Shown piece after piece: positions 1,922-2,093 of a stretch of 64,000 bases of DNA. The position numbers were made by a program, and so were the translations under genes. The notes below the pieces were generated by a model. The model was not told where the DNA came from and did no database searches. It saw only the letters and a list, made by a program, of their open reading frames with translations. Origin of the DNA: Escherichia coli (lineage in GTDB: Bacteria; Pseudomonadota; Gammaproteobacteria; Enterobacterales; Enterobacteriaceae); NCBI RefSeq assembly GCF_048403405.1, contig NZ_CP183129.1; one strand, 5' to 3'. Every line of letters begins with the position of its first letter. Position 1 is the first letter of the stretch.

Positions 1922-1991
1922 CTTATATTTTCGTGAAATCTGTCACTGAAGAAAATTGGCAACGGATGGGTAAAACCGTTATAACACTGTC

Positions 1992-2085
1992 ACCGGTCAC
2001 CAGGACCCCAGGCCGGATTTAAGACGAGGATGCACTGCTGTGTGTACTGTAGAGTCTGGCGGATGTCGACAGGCTCTATTTTTTT
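1992..2085 (+). ncRNA. mcaS: Candidate McaS (IsrA) small RNA
   Basis: Position immediately downstream of and convergent with abgR matches the K-12 mcaS location (recalled). Putative -35 TTGGCA (1956..1961) and -10 TATAAC (1980..1985), GGA-containing body, and an intrinsic terminator (stem 2051..2077, T-run 2079..2085). Ends are approximate. Confidence 0.55.
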
Positions 2086-2093
2086 ATGCAGTT

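Follow-up and report, generated by a model that had tools for sequence, protein, structure and literature searches.

An mcaS (IsrA) small RNA gene convergent with abgR in Escherichia coli, in an allele whose first hairpin differs from that of K-12

The window analysed here is a stretch of 64,000 nucleotides from an Escherichia coli genome (contig NZ_CP183129.1), and near its start an AraC-family gene on the plus strand faces the LysR-family gene abgR on the minus strand. The names of both genes are those of the RefSeq annotation of E. coli 4621, a blood isolate whose sequence is 100% identical to window positions 1000-3200. From the AraC stop codon to the abgR stop codon, the intergenic region (1922-2093) measures 172 bp. 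The original prediction, made from the sequence alone, had described this gap as free of ORFs, and indeed the ORF list contains none of at least 30 aa that is confined to it; three short mechanical ORFs (1990-2115 on the minus strand, and 2030-2134 and 2040-2138 on the plus strand) cross the gap into abgR. The features of the locus are collected in Table 1.

Table 1. Features at the mcaS locus (window coordinates unless stated otherwise; nt, position in the RNA).
Feature	Position	Strand	Description
Block between smrA and mcaS (3.6 kb)	1-1921, extending upstream (3288-6886 of a retrieved relative's locus)		DHA2 MFS efflux permease, HlyD-family protein, AraC-family regulator
AraC-family ORF	1106-1921	+	From the ORF list
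CRP-like site cGTGAaatctgTCACt	1932-1947	+	Centred at -52.5 from A1992; same as K-12
-35 element TTGGCA	1956-1961	+	Same as K-12 and CFT073
-10 element TATAAC	1980-1985	+	18-bp spacer from -35; same as K-12 and CFT073
McaS/IsrA sRNA	1992-2087 (Rfam span, 96 nt); 1992-2085 (curated K-12 equivalent, 94 nt)	+	RF00115, b4426
Hairpin 1	1993-2016	+	6-bp stem, 12-nt loop with GGA at 2003-2005; variable part of the RNA
csgD-pairing core UGCACUGCUGUGUGUA	2031-2046 (nt 40-55)	+	Within hairpin 2; GGA 2028-2030 just upstream
Rho-independent terminator	2049-2085	+	Hairpin 2049-2079, then 7-U tail 2079-2085
abgR (LysR family)	2094-3002	-	Stop codon 2094-2096
abg operon remnant	CFT073 5096-5424; 22270 1670-2029; UTI89 38968-39315 (retrieved-locus coordinates)

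A covariance-model search matched the McaS/IsrA family, RF00115, to positions 1992-2087 on the plus strand at 112.8 bits, the gathering score of the family being 42 (E = 4e-21). The match covers model positions 1-96 of 96 without truncation and is the sole Rfam match in the entire 64-kb window, in which no tRNAs were found. In MG1655, the ncRNA gene mcaS (b4426) is curated at 1405658-1405751, convergent with abgR, and its two ends map to A1992 and T2085 of the window; 8 nt separate T2085 from the abgR stop codon, and MG1655 shows the same gap and the same convergence. The original prediction had named McaS (IsrA), had placed it convergent to abgR as in K-12, and had proposed an alignment to the K-12 gene as a check. 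All three are borne out: the window RNA occupies the orthologous position of b4426 and aligns with the K-12 mcaS sequence, with 11 of the 96 nt different and identical promoter hexamers. The covariance-model match, the K-12 alignment, the synteny with abgR, and the conserved promoter, GGA motifs and terminator together lead us to conclude, with a probability of roughly 97%, that window 1992-2087 (+) is the gene for McaS (IsrA, IS061), an Hfq-dependent dual-function sRNA of Escherichia and close relatives. A reading of the locus as a terminator-only element was rejected. McaS is an already known sRNA and the allele found here is common and already sequenced, so nothing in the identification is new to biology; it does label an RNA gene left out by automated RefSeq annotation in the PGAP records examined. 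The mcaS feature is absent from the PGAP records NZ_CP103479.1, NZ_CP062247.1, NZ_CP051263.1, NZ_CM190140.1, and NC_007946.1, and compared with these, only the curated MG1655 record annotates it, in spite of the high Rfam score.

The surroundings of the gene differ from those in K-12. The immediate upstream neighbour of mcaS in K-12 is smrA; here smrA is 3.6 kb farther off owing to an MFS-HlyD-AraC block between the two genes. The MFS permease of this block is a frameshifted pseudogene, and the K-12 counterpart of the block is 111 bp of unrelated DNA. Homology to K-12 restarts at window position 1886, within the final 36 nt of the AraC ORF, and the entire mcaS promoter is therefore core sequence. 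The AraC gene is present in 1,457 of 5,426 complete E. coli genomes, and the MFS-HlyD-AraC block in about 27%. Of the 5,385 complete E. coli genomes that gave a match to the promoter-plus-RNA region, about 1,461 (about 27%) are at least 95% identical to the window there, the other matches being 80-95% identical, with K-12 at 90.5%. Since the two counts nearly agree, the AraC block and the window-type mcaS allele look linked as one haplotype; an AraC-family neighbour belongs to this haplotype, whereas the K-12 arrangement has none at mcaS. On the other side of mcaS, the abgR-abgABT operon is deleted in strains CFT073, UTI89, and 22270, with mcaS and its terminator intact in all three. These deletion strains retain a short abgR pseudogene remnant; the abg remnant of 22270 carries an annotated AbgT-family fragment, and the CFT073 and UTI89 equivalent is annotated as a hypothetical protein only. 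The arrangement of the window strain, with the AraC block and an intact abg operon, was seen in only about 313 genomes.

The promoter had been described as sigma70-like, with TTGGCA and TATAAC 18 bp apart, and it is present exactly as described, both hexamers being the same as in K-12. A1992 sits 7 nt past the -10 element and equals the curated K-12 5' end. The -10 element of isrA in MG1655 is TATAAC as well, and a C-to-T change to TATAAT was reported to give higher IsrA (supplement of van Nues et al., PMC4824073). A generic promoter scan did not report the mcaS promoter, a negative that is uninformative because the rule of the scan demands T at the final -10 position. Four substitutions relative to K-12 fall in the promoter spacer, where positions 1964-1971 form a second dense cluster of substitutions versus K-12 (CGGATGGGT vs CTAAAGGTT) between invariant hexamers. 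The CRP-like site upstream of the promoter is kept in the Escherichia and Citrobacter homologues, and its motif, GTGA-N6-TCAC, occurs three times in 64 kb compared with 0.8 expected. Its centre at -52.5 is neither the classical class I nor the class II position. A CRP element was reported upstream of the -35 element of the isrA promoter (PMC4824073), and the site at 1932-1947 is probably this published element. The other two perfect GTGA-N6-TCAC motifs in the window are at 3138-3151 and 4795-4808, one between the divergent genes abgR and abgA and the other inside abgB.

On the same strand as mcaS, the AraC ORF stops at 1921, 70 nt short of A1992, and no credible terminator was found between its stop codon and mcaS, the single match of the scan (1814-1828) being weak and inside the ORF. 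AraC transcripts may, for this reason, continue across the mcaS promoter as far as the McaS terminator, which is the first strong one downstream. The same observations would fit an account in which the McaS sequence in this haplotype is mainly the 3' UTR and terminator of the AraC gene, and a McaS-like RNA is produced by read-through and processing instead of, or besides, initiation at its own promoter. We consider this account improbable: K-12, which itself lacks the AraC gene, has exactly the same mcaS hexamers and CRP-like site, and this conservation argues that autonomous transcription has been maintained. Read-through from AraC and autonomous transcription of mcaS are, moreover, mutually compatible. 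Expression of McaS is documented in published work on other strains. Khandige et al. (PMC4546395) sequenced RNA pulled down with Hfq from UTI89 and listed McaS among the known sRNAs obtained; UTI89 is a strain in which the 96-nt McaS and its promoter, from position 1910 onward, are identical to those of the window and lie in the same AraC-adjacent context. An IsrA band of about 96 nt has been reported on Northern blots for K-12 and C strains.

Folding of the RNA gave hairpin 1 (nt 2-25), a second hairpin, and a terminator hairpin (nt 58-88). The GGA-containing sequence noted in the original prediction amounts to four GGA motifs, beginning at 2003, 2015, 2028, and 2061 (nt 12, 24, 37, and 70), at the same positions as in K-12. 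It had also been proposed that folding would place the GGA motifs in loops. This holds for two of the four, the one at nt 12 in the hairpin-1 loop and the one at nt 70 in the terminator loop, which are unpaired in the minimum free energy fold; the other two are not in loops, and the second motif (2015-2017) is at the 3' foot of hairpin 1. All 12 homologues from Escherichia, Citrobacter, and Pseudescherichia retain GGA at three places, one in the variable part of hairpin 1 (nt 11-12) and the others close to nt 36 and nt 69. The predicted terminator hairpin followed by seven T residues was likewise recovered: the hairpin at 2049-2079 has a folding energy of -14.7 kcal/mol, and seven of the next 8 nt are U (T 2079-2085). 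Its loop carries both the GGA at 2061-2063 and a flhD-pairing sequence, CGGAUGUCG, at 2060-2068, and the whole terminator is invariant over the 12 homologues save for two one-sided changes; with its U-tail it would represent the Hfq-binding module of the RNA. A generic terminator scan did not report this terminator, but its apical part exceeds the loop limit of the scan, which makes this negative uninformative. The z-score of the whole-RNA fold was only -1.22, and the covariation count on the 12 homologues was not above that of shuffled controls, the 3' two-thirds of the RNA being invariant and the MAFFT alignment misregistering hairpin 1 in Citrobacter and Pseudescherichia. Since covariation was indistinguishable from the shuffled controls, the structure of McaS described here rests on the Rfam model and on single-sequence folds.

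The original prediction also proposed that the T-run of this terminator is positioned to act as an A-run for abgR from the other strand, in which case the hairpin and T-run would form a bidirectional intrinsic terminator for mcaS and the convergent abgR. The geometry agrees with this proposal, as the abgR stop codon (2094-2096) lies 8 nt from T2085 and the abgR strand has an A-tract ahead of the hairpin. The minus strand, however, lacks the U-tract of a canonical terminator: the sequence after its hairpin is AGUACACA, a single U in 8 nt, and no other hairpin with a U-tract was found within 240 nt on the abgR strand. The minus-strand hairpin is also weaker, at -9.4 compared with -14.7 kcal/mol for the plus strand, because two G-U pairs turn into C-A mismatches, and the z-score of the minus-strand fold (-0.13) does not set it apart from shuffled sequence. 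A canonical bidirectional terminator for mcaS and abgR is thus not supported, and we regard termination in both directions by this element as doubtful; if it occurs, it would be of a non-canonical kind on the abgR strand.

The RNA of the window is identical in strains 4621, CFT073, 22270, and UTI89. In a 272-column alignment of K-12, CFT073, and the window, nt 6-20, in hairpin 1, account for nine of the 11 differences from K-12; the only others are C36A and A82G, nt 21-96 being otherwise identical, and C36A introduces an A-G mismatch in the hairpin-2 pairing scheme of Rfam. The stem of hairpin 1 is kept, one of its pairs being altered on one side (C-G to U-G) and another on both sides (G-U to C-G), and the loop around the conserved GGA is rewritten, from CGCAGAGGAGACAAUG in K-12 to UCACCAGGACCCCAGG in the window. 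Variation of this kind was reported previously by van Nues et al. (PMC4824073), who described the 5' third of IsrA, covering stem 1, as highly variable. A conserved-core scan of species-level genomes found homologues in E. albertii, E. whittamii, other Escherichia, Citrobacter amalonaticus, and Pseudescherichia vulneris; their 3' 60 nt are nearly invariant, and hairpin 1 differs in each lineage. About a quarter of sequenced E. coli, including uropathogenic reference strains, carry a hairpin-1 loop unlike that of the K-12 allele behind all the mechanistic work.

Such differences might be taken as signs of decay. The divergence from K-12, 11 of 96 nt, compares with about 3% in the flanking abgR, and one published flhD-pairing site drops from 9 to 5 of 10 pairs (see below), so that the locus could be read as a decayed or non-functional copy in the lineage of the window. 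We hold this to be very improbable, against which stand the full-length model match, the intact promoter and terminator, the retention of all four GGA motifs, and a hairpin-1 stem preserved via compensating changes. In addition, the identical RNA is fixed in strains of several sources and is associated with Hfq in UTI89, and the variability of hairpin 1 is a property of the family as a whole.

McaS is a member of the CRP regulon, and by base pairing it represses csgD and activates flhDC (reviewed in PMC3634460). Together with Hfq, it guides RNase E to cut within the csgD 5' UTR (PMC6061853). It is also a minor CsrA sponge: two of its four GGA motifs are confirmed CsrA sites, the 5'-most GGA overlapping an flhD-pairing site and the second confirmed CsrA site overlapping the csgD-pairing site (PMC10729762). 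Following the published K-12 work, McaS of the window would be made under cAMP-CRP control when the carbon source is poor. It would then pair with the csgD leader, leading to RNase E cleavage and repression of curli, and with the flhD leader, leading to activation of flagellar synthesis, and its GGA motifs would bind CsrA, relieving CsrA repression of pgaA. Through csgD, flhD, and CsrA/pgaA, McaS connects the carbon supply of the cell with its decision for motility or for biofilm.

The pairing sites of Thomason 2012 were taken second-hand, as tabulated in the supplement of PMC10729762, and duplexes were scored as contiguous helices and within restricted sites, as unrestricted full-length RNAduplex runs gave implausible duplexes with long loops. 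In Supplementary file 3 of PMC10729762, the mRNA partners of the two McaS-flhD sites look swapped: the table pairs CGGATGTCG with ATTATTTTTT and AGGAGACAAT with CGACATCACG, and base complementarity fits the opposite assignment.

The csgD-pairing core of the window equals the site tabulated from Thomason 2012 and pairs with the csgD leader over 16 bp without a mismatch (-28.6 kcal/mol), the same in both alleles; the csgD leader itself is at least 99% identical to that of K-12 in 4,744 of 5,345 genomes. The flhD site in the terminator loop, CGGAUGUCG, is unchanged from K-12, and its duplex with flhD CGACAUCACG was computed at -14.9 kcal/mol here and -13.5 kcal/mol in K-12. The two alleles part at the hairpin-1 loop. 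There, K-12 AGGAGACAAU forms 9 of 10 register-fixed pairs with flhD AUUAUUUUUU, compared with 5 of 10 for the window loop, AGGACCCCAG, with the same, unchanged target. Even the K-12 loop pairs only weakly in thermodynamic terms, and hairpin 1 is variable throughout the family, from which it follows that pairing of the hairpin-1 loop with flhD is a feature of the K-12 allele and not a defining one of the family. Both flhD sites are identical to K-12 in strain 22270, a carrier of the window allele. The flhD 5' UTR of that strain (61-287 of the retrieved locus) differs from K-12 at +36, +37, +54, +74, and +159, none of which lies in a published McaS site. One candidate, a helix of 6-7 bp between the hairpin-1 loop and flhD +72 to +79 that can form with both alleles and includes the U74G SNP of 22270, was considered as a co-varying match and dropped, since chance often yields helices this short and no published McaS site lies there. 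A new GC-rich 5-bp match, ACCCC/GGGGU, lies beside the second flhD site and is so far a computed coincidence.

With only the hairpin-1 loop around a conserved GGA rewritten, CsrA binding and csgD repression are expected to be retained in the window allele, and the share of flhD pairing contributed by the hairpin-1 loop is probably weakened, so that the flhD arm may be weaker; these expectations are drawn from sequence comparison. Conclusions from K-12 on the flhD arm may thus not carry over directly to the window-type allele. A more far-reaching and rather unlikely possibility is that the hairpin-1 loop is a lineage-specific specificity module and that the motility-activating arm of McaS has been weakened or retargeted in extraintestinal pathogenic lineages. 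If so, most of the K-12 loop pairing with flhD -86 to -77 would be abolished, and CsrA binding and csgD repression would be kept.

Among known systems, the closest is McaS of K-12 MG1655 (b4426, RF00115), which shares with the window the locus, the promoter hexamers, the CRP-like site, the four GGA motifs, the csgD core, the terminator-loop flhD site, and the terminator; it differs by the nine hairpin-1 substitutions at nt 6-20, the four spacer substitutions, and having smrA directly upstream. McaS resembles CsrB and CsrC in that GGA motifs presented in loops bind and titrate CsrA (PMC10729762). It differs from them in scale: CsrB has 22 GGA hairpin motifs (PMC10729762), compared with the four GGA motifs of McaS, two of them in loops, and CsrB and CsrC are reported to have 18 and 14 CsrA-binding sites, respectively. 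Repeated GGA-in-loop hairpins of the CsrB/CsrC type were not found in McaS, which is an Hfq-dependent base-pairing sRNA that works like a minor sponge, is not homologous to CsrB/CsrC, and stands outside that family. RprA, OmrA/B, and GcvB target an overlapping site in the csgD 5' UTR, as does McaS (PMC3634460), and an 11-mer, UGCUGUGUGUA, is common to RprA and the csgD-pairing core of McaS. These sRNAs differ from McaS in locus, in promoter control, and in overall fold. The one GGA of RprA lies outside a loop, and in vitro RprA bound CsrA only weakly; McaS, by contrast, is well established as a CsrA sponge (PMC10729762).
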